A DNA stretch of 64,000 nt from Alphaproteobacteria bacterium (GCA_965216755.1 CBDCGL010000011.1:4448001-4512000); one strand, 5' to 3'. Shown: positions 3,016 through 14,318, counted from the stretch's first letter. The notes: generated by a model not told the origin, from the sequence alone. Numbers and translations: made by a program.

Positions 3016-4967
3016 ATGTCGCCAGAAAAGGTGCAACCAAAACTCGCGGTCATTTTGTGCGCCGAGATCATCGGCTACGACCGGTTGAACAAAGATGACG
3101 CCGATCGGACCGGGGCCACGATCGCGCGTTACCACGACATGGTGGAACGGCGTTTGGCGGCCCGTGGTGGCGCGGTTATACGCAAAGCGGCAGACGAAAT
3201 GGTCATGCGATTTGCCAGCGCCGTCGACGCCCTGCGCACGGCAGTCGCAATCCAGGCCGATTTAACGGAATCCAATGCCGCGCTGCCCAGTCACCGTCGC
3301 CTCCATGTGCGCATGGGGGCCGATCTGGGCGAAGTCAGCGAGGCCGGCGATGGCGGGCTTGCAGGTCCACCTTTGGCGGTCGCCACCCGACTGATGTCGT
3401 TTTCCGCGGACGAAGCGATATGTGTGTCGGAAGCGCTCGTCGCCCAATCGCGTCGCGATCTCTATCTGACTTTCGAGTTCCTTACGGCCCTGTCCATAGC
3501 GGGTATTGATAGACCGGTCAATGTTTACCGGATCACCACGGGTATTGCGCGTCCGGCAACACCAGGCGCGCATGCGTCGCGGCGGATGTCGGCCGTGGGG
3601 TTTGGCGCGATCGCTGCCGTTATGACACTCTTGGCGGCAGCTGGCGTATGGCTGTGGTGGACCCAGCAGGGTGCGGTGAACGTAACCGCACCGGCGCCGG
3701 CGCTCGATCAACAGACAAACGAGCACGCGGACGCGGATGATCCCGTATTCGCTATGCCGAGTGGGCCATCGATCGCCGTATTGCCGTTCGTCAACCACAG
3801 TGGCGATCCCGACCAGGCCTATTTTGCCAGCGGACTGGCTGTGGATATCACCACACGCTTGTCGCGCTATCCGGAACTGCGCGTGATCACAGGCCGCGCC
3901 GGCTCACAGTTTGACACGCCGCTGGCCATAGATCGGAATATGGCGAGCCAAATCGGCGCGCGGTTTTTACTGGAAGGCGGCGTACGCAAGAGCCGAGACG
4001 ATGTGCGGGTCACGGTGACGTTGGTCGACGGTACCAGTGGCGAGACTCTGTGGGGCGAGACCTATGAAAGGGCGCTCACCGCGGCCAACTTGTTCGCCGT
4101 CCAAGACGATATCACCGAGCGTGTGGTCGCCGTGGTTGCCGATGTGCATGGCATGATTCGCAAGGTGCAGCTTGAGGAATCGCTAAAACGCTACGTGGAC
4201 AACCTGGCTGCGTTCGATTGTGTCTTGCGGGCCAACGCCTACTACCATGTGTTGACCGAAGACGAACACGGGCGGGCGCGCGACTGCCTCGAACAAGCTA
4301 TTCAAGATGAGCCGGACTATGTCGAAGCTTGGTCTTTGCTGGCATCCATCTATGTCGACGAACATTCTCTCGGCTTCAATCCCCGCGCGGATTCGCTGAC
4401 GAGGGCGGTCGACGCAGCCCGCAAGGCCGTGTCTTTGGATCCGAACAGTCAGCTTGGTCACTATATGCTTGCTCATGCATATTTTATCCGCCGGGAGATG
4501 AATGCGTTTCGCACGTCATCGGCGCGCATTGAAGCTCAATCCGAACAATACCGATGTCTTGGCAAATGTTGGCATGGAGCTCGCCTATAGTGGCGACTGG
4601 GCCCGGGGTATCGCGTTGGTTGAGAAAGCGCGCACGCTCAATCCATTTTTATCCCAGCTGGTATTATTTTCCCCTGTTGCTGGATGATTATCGCAAGGGC
4701 GACGACCAGGCCGCGCTGGCAGATGCGTTGAAACTCGATACGCCGGAGTTCTATTGGACTCAGATCATGTTGGCGCAGATTTATGGTCAACTCGGCGAGA
4801 CGGGGGCGGCGCGCGAAGCCGTCGACAAATTGGCCGTGCTGTATCCCGGTTTCAGCCTTGACGCCGCGCGCGACGAATATCGCGTTTGGAATATTTCCGA
4901 TGAGCTGATCGGGCGAGCCTTGGACGGCTTGCGCAAAGCGGGCGTGCCGGAAGGCACGTGGAATTGA
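3016..4967 (+). pseudogene. Class III adenylate/guanylate cyclase-like + TM + TolB-like + TPR protein with two frameshifts near the 3' end (or sequencing errors)
   Basis: ORF 3016-4590 has a cyclase-like N-terminus, a TM helix and PSIAVLPFVNHSGDPDQAYFA. The TPR part continues in ORF 4502-4687 (ALKLNPNNTDVLA) and then ORF 4554-4967 (YPSWYYF...GLRKAG). Shifts are at about 4520 and at the T5 run 4646-4650. Confidence 0.8.
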
Positions 4968-4982
4968 CATTCTCGAGGGCAT

Positions 4983-6869
4983 ATGCGCGAAGATTCTCAC
5001 AGACGCCTTGCGGCAATCATGGCCGCCGATGTTGCTGGCTATTCGCGCCTGATGGGGGATGACGAGGCCGCAACGGTTGCTACGCTGACGGACTATCGGG
5101 CGGTTTTCGCGGATCATGTGGTTCGGCATCGCGGCCGGGTGGTCGACAACGCCGGTGATAGCGTCTTGGCTGCGTTCGACAGTGTGGTCGAGGCAGTGCA
5201 GTGCGCGCTTGCCGTACAAGATGATCTTGCCGCGCGCAACAAGAGCTTGCCCGAAGTACGCCAAATGCATTTTCGTATCGGTGTCAACTTGGGCGATGTT
5301 ATTGCCAAACCTGATGGCACTGTTTACGGCGATGGGGTCAATGTTGCGGCGCGGCTCGAGAGTCTGGCACCGCCCGGGGGCGTCATGGTCGCCGACATTG
5401 CGCGACGCGCCGTCGGTGATAAGCTCGCGGTTCATTTCCATGACGCCGGCCGCCACGCGGTGAAGAATATCGCTGAGCCGGTGCATGCATTTCGCGTTAG
5501 CGATCAGGCCTCAGGTCCGGCTCCGGGCGCTGGCGATCGACGCACCAAGATGTTTGTCATCGGATTTGTCCTTGTGCTCGTCGCCTTTGCCGGCGCCGTC
5601 GGGATCAGTAAATGGCGCGAGTCGCATCGCGATGCGGCAACCATCGCAACGGATATGGCGTTGGACCCGACCGTCAGCTCACGGTCCGATCCGTCGATCG
5701 CCGTGCTGCCGTTCGATAATCTTTCGGGAGACCCAGAGCAGGACTATTTTGCCGACGGCATCACGGAAGATCTGATCACGGATCTGTCAAAGTTGCCGGG
5801 ATTGTTTGTGGTCGCGCGCAATTCGGCATTTGCTTACAAGAATCGCGCTACCGACGTACGCCAGATCGCCCGCGAGCTCGGCGTGCGTTATGTGCTCGAA
5901 GGCAGTGTGCGCAAGGCAGACCGTCGGGTCAGGATCAACGCGCAGTTGGCCGATGCCGACAGCGGTGGTCACGTTTGGGCCGAACGGTACGACCGTGAGC
6001 TCAACGACATCTTCGCGCTCCAAGATGAAATCGGCCAAGAGATTGTCGATGCTCTACACATTACTTTGGACGAAGGCGCCATCGCCCGCTTGGCCCACAA
6101 AGAAACAGAGAGTCCGGCGGCCTACGATGCCTATCTGCGGGCGCGGGCCTATCTTTTCAGTTTTTCACAACAAGGCATTAGCGAAGCGCGAAGATTGGCG
6201 GAACAGGCCGTCGAACGCGATCCAAATTACGCGCGCGCCTTTGCACTACTCAGTATCATCCATTTTGTTGCCTGGGAGTTTCAGTGGCTTTCAGAATCTG
6301 ACCTCTTACAAAAGGCCATCGAATTCGGCCAGCGTGCGGTTAACCTTGACGATGGTATGGCCGAGGGCCACACCTGGCTCGGCTGGGCATTGCTGTGGAA
6401 CAAGGAGCATGATCGGGCGCTTGCGGCGCTTGAGCGTGCCGTCTCGTTAGAGCCAAATTTTGTTTATGGGCTAGCCATGTTGGGGGAAGCCCTGAACTTT
6501 AACGGCCAGCCGGAACGGGCCATGGCTTTCCTTCAAAAGGCCATTCGGCTCGATCCGCACTACGATTCTAGCATCGTCCATGACCTTGGTCATGCGTACT
6601 TCCTTTTGGGCCGACATGACGAGGCCGTTGAGGCCTACCAAGACGCACTTGCGCGCGGCCCCAATTTCATGCCGGCCCATAGGGGGCTCGCAGCGACATA
6701 TGCGGAGCTGGGCGACACCGAACGCGCCAAGGCTGCCGTCATTGAGTTGCTCCGCATCAATCCGCGAGCGTCATTGGCCGTATGGATGGAAAGACTGCCA
6801 TACCGAGACGAAGCCACTTTGACGCGCCTTATTGCCGCCCTCGGCGACGCCGGCATCCCAGCACAATAG
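4983..6869 (+). CDS. Membrane class III adenylate/guanylate cyclase with TolB-like and TPR domains
   Basis: RRLAAIMAADVAGYSRLM, NAGDSVLA, FRIGVNLGDV, VYGDGVNVAARLE, VKNIAEPV, then a TM helix, PSIAVLPFDNLSGDPEQDYFADG and TPRs. Confidence 0.93.
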   Translation: MREDSHRRLAAIMAADVAGYSRLMGDDEAATVATLTDYRAVFADHVVRHRGRVVDNAGDSVLAAFDSVVEAVQCALAVQDDLAARNKSLPEVRQMHFRIGVNLGDVIAKPDGTVYGDGVNVAARLESLAPPGGVMVADIARRAVGDKLAVHFHDAGRHAVKNIAEPVHAFRVSDQASGPAPGAGDRRTKMFVIGFVLVLVAFAGAVGISKWRESHRDAATIATDMALDPTVSSRSDPSIAVLPFDNLSGDPEQDYFADGITEDLITDLSKLPGLFVVARNSAFAYKNRATDVRQIARELGVRYVLEGSVRKADRRVRINAQLADADSGGHVWAERYDRELNDIFALQDEIGQEIVDALHITLDEGAIARLAHKETESPAAYDAYLRARAYLFSFSQQGISEARRLAEQAVERDPNYARAFALLSIIHFVAWEFQWLSESDLLQKAIEFGQRAVNLDDGMAEGHTWLGWALLWNKEHDRALAALERAVSLEPNFVYGLAMLGEALNFNGQPERAMAFLQKAIRLDPHYDSSIVHDLGHAYFLLGRHDEAVEAYQDALARGPNFMPAHRGLAATYAELGDTERAKAAVIELLRINPRASLAVWMERLPYRDEATLTRLIAALGDAGIPAQ

Positions 6870-8262: not shown

Positions 8263-11256
8263 TTAACCGACAGCGCCCATGATGTGGGTCAGTCCGGTCG
8301 ACACCCGGCGCACAAGATCATAAAGCCGGTACAGCGGCACGAACAATTCACGATGTTCCTTGTCGTAGCCCTGTTCGACATCGGTGCGATAGGTCGCCGG
8401 CTCACCGAAGGCATCGCCGGCAACCGGTTCGACCGCGGCCGGGAAGGCGCGGCGCAGAACCTCTAGTGCACGATCGACATCAAGCTGCAACAAGTCGGTG
8501 ACCACATCATGGGTGGTGGCGTCGGGTTGGCTTGAAAACCGAGGAATGCGGACGGCCAACAGGAATATTTCCTGGACGAGCGCGATACGTAACGCGTGCA
8601 GCAAAGCCAAATCGGCACGACAGGCTTCTACGATCGATGGCAGAGTCTTGGCAGCGTTGATGGCGTCGAAGCCCGCGCGCAAGTCAATCATGTCGGCAAA
8701 GAATGTGCGCATGACGCGATTGAGGCACTCATGACGCTGCGTTTCCTCCAAGAGCCGTGCCAACCGACGCATTTCTTGGGCGCGGCGCGGCTCGTCGGTG
8801 GTGAAGGCGCGCCGTAGCCAAGATACCGGGTTGAGCAGGGCGACATAGGCGCCCAATACGTCGAGGCTACTTAGCCGCTCCGCATGACGGACCAAGGACA
8901 TGATCCGTCGGCAACGGTCTGAGCCTTGATGGACCTCAACAAACCGATCCAGGTCGCGCGCGATCGCACGGCCAACGCCGCCGATACTGTTCGCCAGTAG
9001 TCCCGATTGCTGCAAAATCGAATTGTGTGGAATTGCCCGCATTTGCGTCGGATGGGCGTGGTCGATTCCGGCGATGGAATCGTGCTGGCGCCGCACCCGG
9101 CGTGATCCGGTCGGATACAAAAGATTGGTGCCAAAGGCATTCAACAAGACAGCATAGTCCGGATCGTCCATCATCCGTTCGTTGAACGTTTTGGCGGTAA
9201 TAAAGAACTCCAGCGAATAGTCGGTGTCGCGATAGAAAACATCATCGTGCGCGCCAGGCGGTGCCGCGCTCAGTCCATGTTCAAGCAAGCGACATACGGT
9301 TGCAAAGGCGATCGTGGGTGTCGTGAAATAGACATAGCCATCTCCGCCCTGAAAGCTGAGTTCCTGTTTGACGGGCAGCTTGTCGTGGGCGAATTGTGCG
9401 CGGCTGGCCGGCGTGGCGACGTAGTCGAGGCGGTCACGAAACGAAACCGGATGGGCGCCTCGACCGATCGACTCACCGTGGGTGTCAAAAATCACCAACT
9501 CGATCGATTGCCCATCGGCGGCGCGGATGTCGGCTTGCGTCAGTGCCCGGCCTACTTTGATACGTAACCGTTCAATGGCTAACGAAGCCGCAATTTGGCC
9601 CGACATGCGCCCAGCATCGGAAAAGCCGGTTTGAATCGCGATGCGGCCGCGCTGTTGCACATAGGCCCGATAATGTGGGTTGCCGAGCAGTTCGGCGACA
9701 ATGTCATGACCATGTTCCAGTGCGCGCGGCGTTTCAAATAGTGGCGAAATGTCGATGCGATCTTCAATGCCAAACAGCTTGGCAAAATAGAGCGCCGCCA
9801 GCGGCACAAAGGCGGAATCGGTTTCGGCGATCAGAAAACGAATTGGAGTCTCCGAATCGGCGAATTTCAACATTTGTGCGACCAGCATGAACAGACGCTT
9901 GGCCGACGTGCGTTCGGTCATCACCGAGCCGAAATTGATGGTCTGGGGCTGCACGCCGTCAAGCAGCTCGTTGAGGTGGCGCAGGTCACGGCGCCGACTG
10001 CCTGGGTCGTCGGGTGTCGTGTCGACGGGCATGTGGCGGCGCACCGCGTTTTCAATTTGAGTGGCGTTCAGGCGGACGTGGGTGTGCGCGACGCCGATGC
10101 CGTATATGGTCATTTCCGCGCGCAACACAGCCAACCGGCGTTGATGGCTGTGCGGCGGATTGAGGCTGATCACGCGTGACAGTAACGCCGTGAGCTCATG
10201 GGCGTTGATCAACCGGGAGTCGCTGTTTTCCGCCATTTGCCGCGCGAAGGCCTGAACCTCTTCTGGATCGTCGGCGTCGTCGGGCAGGGCGGCAATGTCT
10301 TCCTCCACGATCCGCAGGGCCAGAACCAGGCGGCTCTCGATCAGCTTCAGGTTGGGGCTGATATCCGCATCAAGTGCGTCATCGCCGTCCATGCTGGCAA
10401 TGATTGTGCGCACTTCGCCGAGAAAATGTTGATGTTGCAGGACGGCGACACGAAGCCGTGCGCGCAAGGTGTCGGTCCAGCGAATATCGGCGCGTCCGTC
10501 CAGGTCATAGCCGACCCAACTGGCGACGGTAAGCGGTGCCGGAACGAGGTCAGTCCACGTGTCCGGATAGGCGTCGGCCGCGACGCCAAACAACACGTCC
10601 AATGCGCGGCGCACCGCATCTTGAATATTGGCTATGGCACGTAGCGCGAAGTCTTGTTCAGTCGCTAAGTCGAGCGGTGCGCGGCGGCCGTGCCGGCGCG
10701 CCGCAGTCCGCGCCAGAATCGCATCACGGTCGGAGTCGTTCAGGGCTTTACCCTTTACGTCAGAGTCGGTGGCTAGCTGGACCAAGTCCTCCGTCAGGCC
10801 TTCCGACATGCCGAAAGTCGGATGTGCCGTGATCACGATTCCCAAGGCGGCTCGCGAGGCTTGCCGTGCAAATTGTTGAAACGACAAAGATTTCCCTTTG
10901 CCGTCACGCGTCAAGCCTTCAAACAACTTTTGTAGTTGTCGGGTGTTGTGGGTCAGCCGGGTCTCGCCGAGATAGGCACCTAATCGTGTCGCCCGAAACC
11001 GAAAGGCACGCAGGTTGAGCAGGCGAACCAGGCCATCAAGGTCGTCGAGACTGACCGCGCCGGTTTCGAATCGCCGTGAAATATCTAGCGCCAGCCGCTC
11101 TACGGGGTTCTGATAGGGATTGTCAGCCGCCTCAGCGTGATAATCGTCAAGGGCGGTGCTGAGCGCGGTTCGCAACGTTTCAGCCGGGGCTGTGTCGGCG
11201 CGATCCTGTTTGGTCTTGTTCGATGGTTTCCGGGAGGTCGGGCTTTTCGCGGGCAT
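8263..11256 (-). CDS. ppc: Phosphoenolpyruvate carboxylase, divergent type
   Basis: VITAHPT, SWVGYDLDG, PLFET, QTGFSDAGR, GESIGRG, MRAIP. Start chosen at ATG 11256, after an aggaaagg RBS. Confidence 0.8.
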   Translation of the reverse strand: MPAKSPTSRKPSNKTKQDRADTAPAETLRTALSTALDDYHAEAADNPYQNPVERLALDISRRFETGAVSLDDLDGLVRLLNLRAFRFRATRLGAYLGETRLTHNTRQLQKLFEGLTRDGKGKSLSFQQFARQASRAALGIVITAHPTFGMSEGLTEDLVQLATDSDVKGKALNDSDRDAILARTAARRHGRRAPLDLATEQDFALRAIANIQDAVRRALDVLFGVAADAYPDTWTDLVPAPLTVASWVGYDLDGRADIRWTDTLRARLRVAVLQHQHFLGEVRTIIASMDGDDALDADISPNLKLIESRLVLALRIVEEDIAALPDDADDPEEVQAFARQMAENSDSRLINAHELTALLSRVISLNPPHSHQRRLAVLRAEMTIYGIGVAHTHVRLNATQIENAVRRHMPVDTTPDDPGSRRRDLRHLNELLDGVQPQTINFGSVMTERTSAKRLFMLVAQMLKFADSETPIRFLIAETDSAFVPLAALYFAKLFGIEDRIDISPLFETPRALEHGHDIVAELLGNPHYRAYVQQRGRIAIQTGFSDAGRMSGQIAASLAIERLRIKVGRALTQADIRAADGQSIELVIFDTHGESIGRGAHPVSFRDRLDYVATPASRAQFAHDKLPVKQELSFQGGDGYVYFTTPTIAFATVCRLLEHGLSAAPPGAHDDVFYRDTDYSLEFFITAKTFNERMMDDPDYAVLLNAFGTNLLYPTGSRRVRRQHDSIAGIDHAHPTQMRAIPHNSILQQSGLLANSIGGVGRAIARDLDRFVEVHQGSDRCRRIMSLVRHAERLSSLDVLGAYVALLNPVSWLRRAFTTDEPRRAQEMRRLARLLEETQRHECLNRVMRTFFADMIDLRAGFDAINAAKTLPSIVEACRADLALLHALRIALVQEIFLLAVRIPRFSSQPDATTHDVVTDLLQLDVDRALEVLRRAFPAAVEPVAGDAFGEPATYRTDVEQGYDKEHRELFVPLYRLYDLVRRVSTGLTHIMGAVG

Positions 11257-11408
11257 CGCGCCTTTCCTTTTTGGCCGTGGCCACAACGATGAAGAAAGTC
11301 CGTCAGCGTCTGACGGTAGCATATGCTGCGACGCACAAAAGACCAAGGCCGTACGGACGCGGCGCGGCCCTCTTGACCGGCATGGGCCAGCTACGCTCAT
11401 ATGACACG

Positions 11409-11960
11409 ATGACAGACGAACCACAGATCCGCGATGTTCTCGACTTTTGGTTTTCGCCGGACGTCAAAGCGCAATGGTGGAAACCGGAAGAGGGGTTCGA
11501 CGACTTATGTCGCGAACATTTCGCCGCCCTTCATGGCCGGGCGGCTTCCGGCGCATTGGATGCCTGGGCCGAAACGGCGGACGGCGCTTTGGCGCTGGTG
11601 ATCCTGCTCGACCAGATTCCACGCAATATCCACCGCGGGACGCCGGGGGCTTTTGCCACCGACGCAAAGGCACGCATCGTCGCCGAGGCTGTCATCGACA
11701 AAGGCTTGCATGAATTGCAGCCGACCGGTCGCCGTGTCTTTTACTTTATGCCTTTCGAGCACAGCGAGGACTTGGCTGATCAAGAGCGTTCAGTGGCGCT
11801 GATGAAAACCCTCGGGGACGAGGGCTGGAACGGCTATGCCCAACAGCATCGCGATATCGTCGCCCGTTTCGGCCGTTTTCCCCATCGTAATGCGATCTTG
11901 GGGCGGGAAAGCACGCCGGAAGAGATCGAATTCCTGAAGCAGCCCGGCTCGTCGTTTTAG
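11409..11960 (+). CDS. DUF924 family protein
   Basis: VLDFWF, LALVILLDQIPRNIHRGT..AFATD, FYFMPFEHSEDL, HRDIVARFGRFPHRNAILGREST. Confidence 0.92.
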   Translation: MTDEPQIRDVLDFWFSPDVKAQWWKPEEGFDDLCREHFAALHGRAASGALDAWAETADGALALVILLDQIPRNIHRGTPGAFATDAKARIVAEAVIDKGLHELQPTGRRVFYFMPFEHSEDLADQERSVALMKTLGDEGWNGYAQQHRDIVARFGRFPHRNAILGRESTPEEIEFLKQPGSSF

Positions 11961-12160
11961 CGCGGATTGGCCGGGGGCGATGCTTCTGTGGCGCCAGATC
12001 CGCGCTGCAGCTCGAGCCATTTGCTGACCCCGACAGCACCACCAAACAGCACCAATACGGCCACGAACCCGACGACAAAGATCTTGGTGCGGCGATCGCC
12101 GGCATGGGCCGACGACCCGTCTTCGCGGTGTTTGGCGTCCGGCAGATGTGAACTTGCCAT
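11957..12160 (-). CDS. 67-aa single-pass membrane protein homologous to the TM segment of the cyclase at 4983-6869
   Basis: RBS gaagggggac before ATG 12160. AGDRRTKIFVVGFVAVLVLFGGAVGVSKW versus the cyclase's AGDRRTKMFVIGFVLVLVAFAGAVGISKW. Confidence 0.75.
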   Translation of the reverse strand: MASSHLPDAKHREDGSSAHAGDRRTKIFVVGFVAVLVLFGGAVGVSKWLELQRGSGATEASPPANPR

Positions 12161-12316
12161 GCTGTCCCCCTTCGCGCGCTCATTATGGTGGCTTTGGCCC
12201 ACTGCGGCCAAGGCCAATTGTGGTCTGGCTGGGTGAGCGTGTATTGGGGGAAGGGAGTGGGTGTGGTTGGTAAATAAAAATACCGCCAATCAATGTAGTC
12301 AATAAGTTGGGATCGC

Positions 12317-12340
12317 AATATGTGATCACTATTACATATT
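12317..12340. promoter_or_regulatory. CRP/FNR-family (CRP-type) box 1
   Basis: aataTGTGAtcactaTTACAtatt: TGTGA-N6-TCACA with one mismatch, with palindromic AT flanks. Confidence 0.6.
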
Positions 12341-12384
12341 TATATACAACTTTAATAAAATAACACTCCACTTTCCCTCAATTG

Positions 12385-12400
12385 TGTGACCACCATTACA
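12385..12400. promoter_or_regulatory. CRP-type box 2
   Basis: TGTGAccaccaTTACA, a near copy of box 1 located 64 bp downstream. Confidence 0.55.
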
Positions 12401-12482
12401 TAAAACTTTATTGAATAATTACGCACCTTCCGCCAAATTACTTCTCGATTGCTGTTGGGTTTTTCGGAAGGGACTTCGCAAA

Positions 12483-14318
12483 ATGTTCGCTCTGCGCAAA
12501 AAGAATTTCGATGACAATCCGGGCCGTGACGCCGCCGTCAATGATCGCCTCAATCGCCTCGCCGAACGCGCCCATGCCGTTCAGGTCGCCCGCGCCGAAT
12601 TGGCCGCCAAAGCCCAGTCTCACGACACACACAATGTCGAGACCGCGCCCCACGCCAACATCTCTGGCGCCAACCCGGTCTCCATGCCGGCCCCAGAAGC
12701 GCCGGTCGCCGATCACACCCCGGCCGTAGACGCCGCGCCCGCGCCCGCCACCGTCTCCCTCGCCGAGGCCGAGGATCTTGAAGTTCGCGCCGCCATGCTC
12801 GCCCAGGAGCGCGATCTCATGGCCCAGGTCATGGCCGTCGCCGACAGCTCGGTCACAGGTCCCGCACCTCAGGCCGCCGCACCGGCACCCGCCGCCGACA
12901 CGGCCCACAAGCCCCATCCGCGCCGCCGCGCCGCCGACCAGCTCGCCACCTTGGCCCCCAATGCCGAGGCCACAGGCGCCGACACCAGCACCAATCTGCC
13001 CGCCGTCGCCAATGCCGCCCCCGTAACCGCCGCCAAACCCCGCGCCAAGCGCATCTCACCCGTCGTCCAAGACCTCCAAGAGCGCGTCCAGCTCACCCTC
13101 ATGGAGCGCATCGACGCCGAGAAAGCCCTGACACTGGTGCGCGACGACCTGATCCGCCAGATCACAGATCTGGTCGCCGAGATCGTCGATGAAATGGGCG
13201 TCGTCCTCAACGGCTCCGAGCTCGACCAACTGGTCGACGTGCTGGTCGACGAAATGATCGGCTTGGGCCCGCTCGAGCCCTTGCTCGCCGACGAGGCCAT
13301 CACCGACATCATGGTCAATGGCTGCAACCGGGTTTACGTCGAACGTGGCGGCAAGCTCGAGCGCACCAATGTCAGCTTCCGCGATGACGAACAGCTGATG
13401 CAGATCGCCACCCGCATCGCCACCGCCATCGGCCGCCGCATCGACCGCTCACAGCCTTTGGTCGATGCCCGCCTCGTCGACGGCAGCCGCGTCAATATCA
13501 TCATTCCGCCGCTCGCCATCGACGGCCCATCGATCTCGATCCGTAAGTTCTCCCAGCACACCATCACCCTCGATCAGATGGCGTCGCAGGGCAATATCTC
13601 CCCGGCCATGGCCGTGGTCTTGAAAATCGCCGCCCGCTCGCGCCTCAACATCCTGATCTCAGGCGGTACCGGCTCCGGTAAAACCACCCTGCTCAACGCC
13701 ATGTCGCAGCTGATCGACAATGACGAGCGCATCGTCACCATCGAGGACGCCGCCGAATTGAAACTCCAGCAGGACCATACCGTGCGCTTGGAGACCCGGC
13801 CCGCCAATCTCGAAGGCCAGGGCGAGATCACCATGCAGGACTTGGTCAAAAATGCCCTGCGTATGCGCCCCGACCGGATCATCCTGGGTGAGACCCGTGG
13901 CGGCGAGGCGATCGACATGCTGCAGGCCATGAACACAGGCCATGACGGCTCCTTGTCGACCATCCACGCCAACCGCCCGCGCGAGGCCTTGACCCGGCTC
14001 GAGAACATGGTCGCCATGGCCGGCCTCAATCTGCCCTCGCGCGCCGTGCGCACCCAGATCACCGAGGCCATCGACTTGATCGTGCAGGTCCAGCGCATGC
14101 GCGACGGTGTCCGCCGCGTAACCTCGATCCTGGAGATCGTCGGCATGGAAGGCGACATCATCACCGCCCAGGAGCTGTTCAAGTTCGAATATGACGGTGA
14201 CGATGAATCGGGCCGTATCACCGGCAACTTCGTCGCCTCCGGCCTGCAACCCAAGTTCCTCGAAAAGGCCCGCTATTTCGGCCTCGATCGGGCCCTGCAG
14301 GACGCCATGGGCGTCTAG
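12483..14318 (+). CDS. cpaF: CpaF/TadA pilus assembly ATPase with a long Ala/Pro-rich N-terminal extension
   Basis: GLGPLEPLLADEAITDIMVNG, PLVDARLVDGSRVN, Walker A GGTGSGKTT, TIEDAAEL, ALRMRPDRIILGETRG, AMNTGHDGSLSTIHAN. Start at ATG 12483, after ggaaggga. Confidence 0.92.
   Translation: MFALRKKNFDDNPGRDAAVNDRLNRLAERAHAVQVARAELAAKAQSHDTHNVETAPHANISGANPVSMPAPEAPVADHTPAVDAAPAPATVSLAEAEDLEVRAAMLAQERDLMAQVMAVADSSVTGPAPQAAAPAPAADTAHKPHPRRRAADQLATLAPNAEATGADTSTNLPAVANAAPVTAAKPRAKRISPVVQDLQERVQLTLMERIDAEKALTLVRDDLIRQITDLVAEIVDEMGVVLNGSELDQLVDVLVDEMIGLGPLEPLLADEAITDIMVNGCNRVYVERGGKLERTNVSFRDDEQLMQIATRIATAIGRRIDRSQPLVDARLVDGSRVNIIIPPLAIDGPSISIRKFSQHTITLDQMASQGNISPAMAVVLKIAARSRLNILISGGTGSGKTTLLNAMSQLIDNDERIVTIEDAAELKLQQDHTVRLETRPANLEGQGEITMQDLVKNALRMRPDRIILGETRGGEAIDMLQAMNTGHDGSLSTIHANRPREALTRLENMVAMAGLNLPSRAVRTQITEAIDLIVQVQRMRDGVRRVTSILEIVGMEGDIITAQELFKFEYDGDDESGRITGNFVASGLQPKFLEKARYFGLDRALQDAMGV

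Follow-up and report, generated by a model that had tools for sequence, protein, structure and literature searches.

Known systems and the locus under study

The part that small membrane proteins play in bacterial regulation is poorly charted, and the examples described so far are not known to be related to their targets in sequence. In the parts of PMC12648545 devoted to them, MgrB, SafA and UgtL/UgtS (with PhoQ) and YoaI (with EnvZ) are presented as small membrane proteins that modulate membrane sensors. According to sections of PMC9245647 and PMC11831152, protein fragments carrying the interface of their parent inhibit that parent in Escherichia coli, and the anchors of class III adenylate cyclases are argued, in sections of PMC4821796 and PMC9433096, to be more than tethers. 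Here, we describe a window of 64,000 nucleotides (nt) from Alphaproteobacteria bacterium (GCA_965216755.1 CBDCGL010000011.1:4448001-4512000; the whole stretch that was analysed, with positions counted from its first letter) in which a small open reading frame (ORF) for 67 amino acids (aa) shares its transmembrane (TM) segment with the anchor of a class III cyclase encoded about 6.5 kb away. The locus offers a case that is open to testing: the small protein is homologous to a signalling enzyme's anchor and has a conserved packing face in common with it. As an overall reading, we lean towards a real small membrane protein of an unnamed family, whose module is twinned with the cyclase anchor and which may co-assemble with it.

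A membrane module shared by a small ORF and a cyclase anchor

The following features carry the comparison.

11957..12160, minus strand: small ORF, 67 aa (ATG at 12160-12158, stop codon at 11959-11957)
11996..12103, minus strand: shared module in the small ORF (codons 20-55), with a basic cluster, the TM helix and a juxtamembrane W-x-E-x-x-R
4983..6869, plus strand: class III adenylate/guanylate cyclase, 628 aa (Pfam Guanylate_cyc, E 6.6e-10, residues 11-161)
5529..5636, plus strand: twin module in the cyclase gene (residues 183-218), its only TM helix

Within the 29-codon core (12017-12103 against 5529-5615 of the cyclase gene), the two copies agree in 23 of 29 residues and 64 of 87 bases. Twelve codons are the same in both copies, 11 are synonymous but different and six are replacements, all between hydrophobic or small residues. 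This reproduces exactly what the first-pass annotation of the window had counted (23/29 residues, six hydrophobic or small substitutions, different synonymous codons for 11 of the 23 conserved residues). Its GxxxG motif was confirmed as well, being located at G40-G44 in the small ORF and reading AxxxG in the cyclase. A pairwise BLASTP alignment of the two proteins gives 26/47 identities (E 1e-15). When the small ORF is compared to the whole 5.0-Mb genome, the cyclase is found at E 4.8e-13, with the next matches at E 0.6 and 1.0. On the nucleotide level, the similarity is limited to approximately 110-115 nt (about 5526-5640 against 12106-11992) and the flanks do not align; the two copies lie around 6.5 kb apart in inverted orientation. 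Neither a catalytic nor a periplasmic domain has left traces on either side of the module of the small ORF, whichever frame is read.

The TM segments of 16 TM-bearing paralogs of the cyclase were also searched against the genome. All matches below E 1e-4 fall in cyclase genes, with one exception, namely the TM segment of this cyclase, which matches the small ORF (E 2.6e-12). Since only this cyclase has a TM segment that matches outside the cyclase genes, the pair is unique in this genome. A search with cyclase residues 150-240 for other carriers of this TM helix returned only the cyclase itself and an unrelated TM segment, P0004.

The small ORF is nested in a 110-aa open frame with a TTG start at 12289 and is annotated as a 67-aa protein in both NCBI and ENA sources. 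Its own ribosome-binding site, ATG and stop codon, as claimed in the first-pass annotation, hold: a Shine-Dalgarno-like GGGGGA run lies 4 nt upstream of the ATG and the frame of 67 aa was confirmed. Residues 1-21 form a polar cytoplasmic tail and residues 22-26 a basic cluster (D-R-R-T-K), followed by the TM helix (approximately residues 27-46), an acidic juxtamembrane residue (E50) and an Ala/Pro-rich tail (residues 54-67). The best 19-aa hydropathy window covers residues 27-45, with a mean Kyte-Doolittle value of 2.73. No Pfam family matches the small ORF at E 0.01 or better, the catalytic domain PF00211 being absent, and Rfam gave no match at E 0.1 or better between positions 10000 and 14000 of the window. 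The small ORF is probably a genuine gene for a small single-pass membrane protein. In the cyclase itself, the catalytic domain is cytoplasmic, one TM helix comes next and the periplasmic part has TPR repeats (many TPR families matched). Both proteins have a cytoplasmic N terminus, because the catalytic domain of the cyclase must be cytoplasmic and the basic cluster lies on the N-terminal side; the C terminus of the small protein is outside.

Age of the copy and selection

The core holds 23 base differences, with 15 at third, five at first and three at second codon positions. The binomial probability of at least 15 third-position differences among 23 at p = 1/3 is 0.0017. Using NG86 on the 29 codons, the nonsynonymous (dN) and synonymous (dS) divergences are 0.154 and 1.33, giving a ratio (omega) of 0.12, while three methods applied to the 36-codon module give an omega of 0.14-0.22; across the estimates, dS is 1.1-1.5. 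The two copies have had equal time to diverge, and neutral drift was simulated on the branch of the small ORF alone. At 0.3 substitutions per site, which is less than half of the estimated per-branch dS, 0.27% of 20,000 trials keep at least 23 of the 29 residues without a stop codon, and at 0.4 substitutions per site 0.01% of 20,000 trials do so. The first-pass annotation had taken the small ORF for an old copy under purifying selection and not debris, and this is borne out both by the omega over 29 codons and by the rejection of neutral drift in the simulation. The codon comparison shows an old within-lineage exchange (a duplication or a gene conversion of about 110 nt) with both copies under purifying selection. 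What it shows is a module under selection for most of its history, not necessarily in its present setting.

Relatives of the small protein in other genera

For the search of relatives, the genus of this genome (G000) is referred to as g1, and the small ORFs of relatives are located in genera g4 and g6. A search among near-length entries in 5.8 billion proteins returned only the query, none of 86 candidates scored in the search among longer proteins, and a search of 1.84 billion representatives gave only the query and P0002 (E 6e-4). The latter is a metagenomic cyclase fragment of 230 aa on a 2,066-nt contig, which shares the module. The relatives are too short and divergent for protein-database routes and were recovered by six-frame genome searches only. 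Here, weak matches were obtained in 5 of the 6 g6 genomes and 1 of the 2 g4 genomes, which proved to be short free-standing ORFs of the same build; the sixth g6 genome also has a small ORF. As the relatives (6/6 in g6, and in g4) are free-standing ORFs of 42-60 aa, the caveat of the first-pass annotation that the small ORF could be a truncation of a longer cyclase gene in relatives does not hold.

A profile made from seven small ORFs (42-60 aa) of g4 and g6, with no row from this genome, was searched against the 98,886 six-frame ORFs (at least 30 aa) of this genome. The small ORF is the top match (40.6 bits, E 8.6e-10), followed by the cyclase TM segment (32.5 bits, E 3e-7). The third match scores 15.6 bits (E 0.056) and the best reversed-sequence decoy 13.1 bits (E 0.35). 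An earlier five-row profile gave the same order, with 3.5e-6 for the small ORF and 1.8e-3 for the cyclase. When an alignment of seven rows that includes the small ORF (A3) is used as a profile, 9 of the 23 genomes of the bacterial family are matched (g6 6/6, g4 2/2 and this genome); the order contains the same 23 genomes. Two matches were obtained in 401 genomes sampled from the class, i.e. this genome and one at 6.5e-5, and the second lies in a PAS sensor protein and was taken as chance. In one of the g4 genomes, G010, the A3 match is weak and located inside a cyclase TM segment; this genome has 6 cyclase matches at E 1e-20 or better.

Like its relatives, the small ORF is free-standing (42-67 aa across the family), with an R-R cluster directly before the TM helix and an acidic residue after it. 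Residues R23, R24, F32, F39, V43, V45, S46 and E50 are invariant in the seven A3 rows. V45 becomes variable once G005 (the sixth g6 genome) and two cyclases are added, and L085, a metagenome contig, has Q at position 50. The free forms of other genera are 30-40% identical to the small ORF, against 79% between the small ORF and the cyclase core. The small ORF, this cyclase and P0002 share R-R-T-K and S-K-W, where the other small ORFs have R-R-S-R and S-R/M. None of the seven A3 members reaches the curated cut-off of a Pfam or NCBIfam model (best E 0.014-0.26). A pattern scan of genome_contigs with the small ORF found nothing. With an alignment named A2, the same scan gave two loci that were rejected as spurious, both being in frames without a called gene, and nothing was found in metagenome_contigs; with A3, metagenome_contigs yielded one locus, the g4-like ortholog L085. 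Judged by these alignments, the small ORF belongs to a previously unnamed family of 42-67-aa proteins, confined to three genera of one bacterial family. Its members share one build: a polar tail of short length leads to the R-R-(S/T)-(K/R) cluster and the single TM helix, after which comes a juxtamembrane residue that is acidic.

The relatives are closely coupled to their neighbours. In five of the six g6 genomes, the stop codon of the small ORF and the GTG start of a CoxE-like VWA gene overlap in a GTGA; in the sixth, the overlap is with a TTG start. In g4 (G003), the GTG of the small ORF overlaps the stop codon of an enolase-superfamily-like gene as GTGA. The gene order of L085 is that of G003, with an ATGA overlap and an ORF of 42 aa; 110 of 126 nt are identical between the two ORFs, with a dN/dS of 0.445. 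These overlaps suggest that the small ORFs of the relatives are translated, possibly together with their neighbours. At the g6 loci (L006-L010 and L050), the CoxE-like VWA gene is preceded by the small ORF with a 4-nt overlap, while in this genome a CoxD-like ATPase gene takes that place.

The distribution of the small ORF was then set beside that of the cyclases. All six g6 genomes have the small ORF, and the family of this cyclase (E 1e-20 or better) occurs in 0/6 of them, with PF00211 in 0/5 complete genomes searched. In g3, g5, g7 and g8, nine cyclase-bearing genomes with 1 to 98 matches each gave no A3 match. Altogether, the cyclase family is present in 11 relatives, and in 10 of these a free-standing small ORF was not found. 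The first-pass annotation had proposed a decoy or partner that pairs with the cyclase in the membrane; a role dedicated to this cyclase is not supported by the distribution. Around 45 paralog loci of G000, G003 and G010 were also scored individually with the other-genera profile. The only cyclases that match are this one, P0002 (32.4 bits) and, as a borderline case, G010:C165 (26.4 bits, 2.4e-5). Only in this genome does a cyclase paralog appear to carry the same module as a small ORF.

Possible routes of the module exchange

In a maximum-likelihood tree computed from 34 columns of the module, a single branch is well supported (95/94), namely the one that unites the small ORF, this cyclase and P0002. 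The terminal branch lengths in this clade are 0.11 (small ORF), 0.22 (cyclase) and 0.48 (P0002), that of the small ORF being the shortest. The g4 small ORF is the sister of the whole clade, with weak support (65/53). The first-pass annotation had offered as an alternative that the cyclase acquired its anchor from the small gene. Because of the distribution across genomes and the 34-column tree, this direction is weakly favoured, and we give it about an even chance. The reverse transfer, from the cyclase to the small gene, keeps a share of the probability as a possible yet improbable course. A conversion between two already related modules, inverted and about 6.5 kb apart, seems rather unlikely.

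If the transfer ran from the cyclase, the small ORF could be a lineage-specific partial duplicate of the cyclase TM segment and solely a decoy or partner of that cyclase. The likeness to the small ORFs of other genera would then reflect a shared ancestry of anchors or convergence. The well-supported clade fits such an origin, since two of its three members are cyclases, as do the R-R-T-K and S-K-W signatures common to these three. The small ORFs occupy three loci in three genera, the two copies here are only about 6.5 kb apart, and the G010:C165 cyclase also weakly matches the small-ORF profile. However, this last match is of the same order as the chance match to the PAS protein (6.5e-5). Moreover, the small ORF outscores both cyclases on the other-genera profile (40.6 against 32.5 and 32.4 bits), has the shortest branch of the clade, and has relatives in g6, where such cyclases are lacking. 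On balance, we regard an origin as a derivative of the cyclase as unlikely, and return to a small protein of a wider family, one module of which was exchanged with a cyclase.

A conserved helix face and possible pairing

With A3 as the alignment, AlphaFold2 predicts a single helix for the small ORF, spanning residues 22-54, with a mean predicted local distance difference test (pLDDT) score of 73.8 and block means of 97 (residues 31-40) and 89 (residues 41-50). The conservation moment over ten family members peaks at 100-103 degrees per residue, which is reached by 132 of 20,000 shuffles. Position 40 is G or A throughout and position 44 is G or A; together with F32, F39, V43, S46 and E50, these two positions form the conserved face. 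The small ORF and the cyclase disagree at eight residues, six of which are at 120-220 degrees, off the conserved face (equalled by 716 of 20,000 random subsets). In the cyclase copy, the conserved face is intact at each of its positions, while the other paralogs have TM segments that diverged beyond recognition. A single conserved helix face with a small-xxx-small pair is typical of a helix-helix contact, and class III cyclases work as dimers. Because it has one such face with a small-xxx-small pair, we infer that the module would be an association device. A complex prediction of cyclase residues 160-250 with the small protein scored 0.02 against a mark of 0.32; run without controls, it weighs neither way.

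In the proposed mechanism, the small protein would act by helix-helix packing in the membrane, through self-association or by docking on a partner, which is the most likely mode because the conserved residues lie on a single helix face. After an old exchange, one of approximately 20 cyclase paralogs carries the module of the small ORF as its sole TM helix. As the likeliest specific role in this genome, the small protein might then co-assemble with the TM helix of this cyclase and modulate its dimerisation or activity. This step is proposed because the packing face is identical in both copies and class III cyclases are dimeric; it is a tentative step, and one we hold to be improbable at present. 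A more elaborate form would be a TM 'microProtein' circuit, in which the cyclase captured the helix of the small gene, the face was kept since both co-assemble, and the level of the small protein sets the number of active dimers. Such a circuit is doubtful.

Alternatively, the small ORF may be a real family member with a function unrelated to the cyclase, which borrowed its anchor and has no interaction with it today. This is conceivable, if short of probable. Members of the family are found in genomes that lack such cyclases and are coupled to unrelated genes (CoxE-like in g6, enolase-like in g4), and a free-standing small ORF was not found in 10 of 11 relatives bearing the cyclase family. 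Against a merely borrowed anchor, the cyclase kept the whole conserved face and the differences between the two copies avoid it, which suggests that both copies still rely on the same contacts for packing. Co-assembly is retained as a possible part of the overall reading.

Gene neighbourhood and cyclase paralogs

The surroundings of the small ORF hold the following features.

11223..11960, plus strand: DUF924 protein gene, convergent neighbour (Pfam PF06041, E 3.4e-62)
12411..14318, plus strand: CpaF/T2SSE-type secretion ATPase, divergent neighbour (Pfam T2SSE, E 4.5e-66, residues 284-559)
12161..12410: intergenic stretch flanked by the divergent small ORF and CpaF-like gene, holding the GGGGGA run, a promoter-like site, an inverted repeat and an AT-rich stretch

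The stop codon of the small ORF overlaps that of the convergent DUF924 gene. Upstream of the small ORF, a promoter-like TTGGCC-18-CATAAT is located at 12211-12182 on the minus strand. An inverted repeat, TTGGCC-N6-GGCCAA (12211-12194, minus strand), coincides with its -35-like hexamer and is a possible operator. A scan of the small ORF region found no terminator. Between the small ORF and the ATPase, the GC content falls to 0.32-0.38 (12225-12449), compared to 0.59 for the genome. The ATPase has an Ala/Pro-rich N-terminal extension of about 280 aa with a GC content of up to 0.76, preceded by the sharply AT-rich stretch. No other tad/cpa genes were found beside this ATPase. On account of this CpaF-like neighbour, a Flp/Tad pilin was considered for the small ORF. 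A Flp pilin or TadE/G-like pseudopilin was rejected, with PF13400 scoring 16.1 bits against a cut-off of 22.3 in one of seven members and no tad genes beside the ATPase. Further away, an ORF of 1,053 aa (8263-11424, minus strand) has a weak Pfam PEPcase match (E 2e-16), which covers its residues 160-658 against positions 96-622 of the 919-position model. By this match it is an atypical phosphoenolpyruvate carboxylase-like gene.

The cyclase belongs to a large family. In this 5.0-Mb genome with a GC content of 0.59, 19 paralogs are close by their catalytic domain and 49 matching pieces exist in all; 20 matches reach E 1e-20 or better. The catalytic domains are 50-65% identical within the genome, while the linker and TM segments are mutually unlike. 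The cyclase-TM-TPR family is greatly expanded in this bacterial family, as the matches at E 1e-20 or better per genome illustrate: 20 in G000 (this genome), 30 in G003, 49 in G013, 63 in G016, 98 in G002 and 0 in all six g6 genomes. Two of the 19 close paralogs (G000:C11 4156770-4157282 and 4368706-4369200) have no TM helix between the catalytic domain and a conserved periplasmic-type motif, and another (G000:C11 2958389-2958889) has in-frame stops after the catalytic domain. In several paralogs, which are open frames of approximately 1,040-1,075 aa, a single catalytic domain is followed by two tandem copies of the periplasmic part (query residues about 235-627), e.g. G000:C11 42699-45767, 2657204-2660257 and 2660300-2663377. 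Directly upstream of the cyclase, a family paralog at 3016-4967 is split over three overlapping frames (3016-4590, 4502-4687 and 4554-4967). Its N-terminal part gave no PF00211 match at E 0.01 or better, and it is either a decaying copy or the result of assembly frameshifts.

Points weighing against the reading

Several observations weigh against a functional small protein that pairs with the cyclase. At the level of the gene, the promoter scan gave one site against a mean of 0.6 in shuffles, which is not above chance. The two tails of the small ORF (33 codons) have GC contents of 0.70/0.67/0.61 at the first, second and third codon positions, lacking the usual coding composition (0.65/0.46/0.71 in 10 long genes of the window). 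None of the seven sequencing runs found is listed as RNA, and no sign of expression was obtained for the small ORF. At the level of the family, the dN/dS values among small ORFs are noisy and not low, with 0.16-0.87 in distant pairs, where dS is saturated, and 0.445 in the closest pair. The locus also differs per genus: before the CoxE-like gene in g6, after the enolase-like gene in g4, and between the DUF924 and CpaF-like genes here, where the CoxE-like and enolase-like orthologs have no adjoining small ORF. With three loci in three genera, synteny failed as a proof of orthology; vertical orthology is therefore not shown, and independent births are possible. Because g6 has the small ORF without cyclases, pairing with a cyclase cannot be what the family does in general. 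As for the exchange, the tree has only 34 columns and does not reject monophyly of the small ORFs (approximately unbiased (AU) test, p 0.39). The catalytic domain of P0002 is 45% identical (101/226) to that of this cyclase, below the 50-65% among the paralogs of this genome, a pattern that matches neither direction of exchange simply.

Part of this evidence also fits a non-functional relic, i.e. the remnant of a decayed cyclase paralog or a stray recombination patch, with a selection signal that predates its release. The tails without coding-type composition and the lack of expression support agree with this, and the cyclase family is large and turning over, as the two paralogs without a TM helix, the one with in-frame stops and the split upstream paralog illustrate. 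Open frames are also cheap in GC-rich DNA, with 94 ORFs of at least 40 aa overlapping 10.5 kb. A relic is nevertheless difficult to reconcile with the module itself. It lies exactly in frame with the ATG and the ribosome-binding run, no catalytic or periplasmic remnants are found beside it, the flanks do not align, and the intact frame has an omega of 0.12-0.22. The branch of the small ORF is shorter than that of the cyclase, and for the 16 paralog TM segments tested no free copy other than this one was found. Finally, the small ORF has the architecture of the free-standing ORFs whose family it matches. A relic is therefore very unlikely, and a real small membrane protein is kept as the preferred reading. 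Contigs from four sequencing runs over the small ORF region have identical DNA, with no natural variation.

Comparison with known systems

Like the regulators of the MgrB/SafA type, which have 40-70 aa and a single TM helix in the descriptions given in PMC12648545, the small ORF encodes a short single-pass protein; theirs bind a membrane-anchored signalling enzyme. They differ in that those regulators are, as far as the same passages describe them, unrelated in sequence to the TM segments of their targets, whereas the small ORF is homologous to the anchor of its candidate target. This candidate is a class III cyclase, and the word 'cyclase' occurs 0 times in PMC12648545. Membership of the small ORF in the described MgrB/SafA-type family was rejected, as no Pfam or NCBIfam model matches at its curated cut-off.

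Another likeness is to eukaryotic microProteins. As set out in parts of PMC9638782, these are reduced to the association module of a larger multi-domain relative and can enter heteromers that are non-productive or modulating. The small ORF is likewise small, has a single module and is related in sequence to one module of a larger protein that this genome encodes, which makes a TM-type microProtein possible. Judging by those same parts of PMC9638782, the known microProteins are soluble dimerisation domains of plant or animal transcription factors, while here a bacterial TM helix is the module in common and the small gene is possibly its donor, not the derivative. Should the pairing be true, the microProtein principle would be extended to bacterial membranes and cyclic AMP (cAMP) signalling. 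In the sections of PMC9245647 and PMC11831152 mentioned above, the dominant-negative fragments are engineered, whereas the small ORF would be natural, separately encoded and long maintained. A full-text literature search found no description of a small protein in bacteria that is homologous to the TM anchor of a sensor, be it a cyclase or another.

Even without pairing, a previously unnamed small-protein family is defined, in a lineage with 0 to approximately 98 cyclase-family copies per genome. In the 'Rosetta stone' logic, a module is free-standing in some genomes and fused in others. The module described here resembles this in being free in g4 and g6 and fused to a cyclase in this genome. 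Unlike Rosetta stone pairs, the free and fused forms coexist about 6.5 kb apart in one genome. If the pairing is true, this would be a route by which a multi-domain receptor gains an anchor from a small gene, or sheds its anchor as one.

The last comparison concerns the cyclase anchors themselves. Those argued to be more than tethers have six helices and serve as receptors in the sections of PMC4821796 and PMC9433096 that deal with them, while in this cyclase only one helix precedes the periplasmic TPR part. If the microProtein circuit is true, cAMP signalling would here be tuned from within the bilayer.

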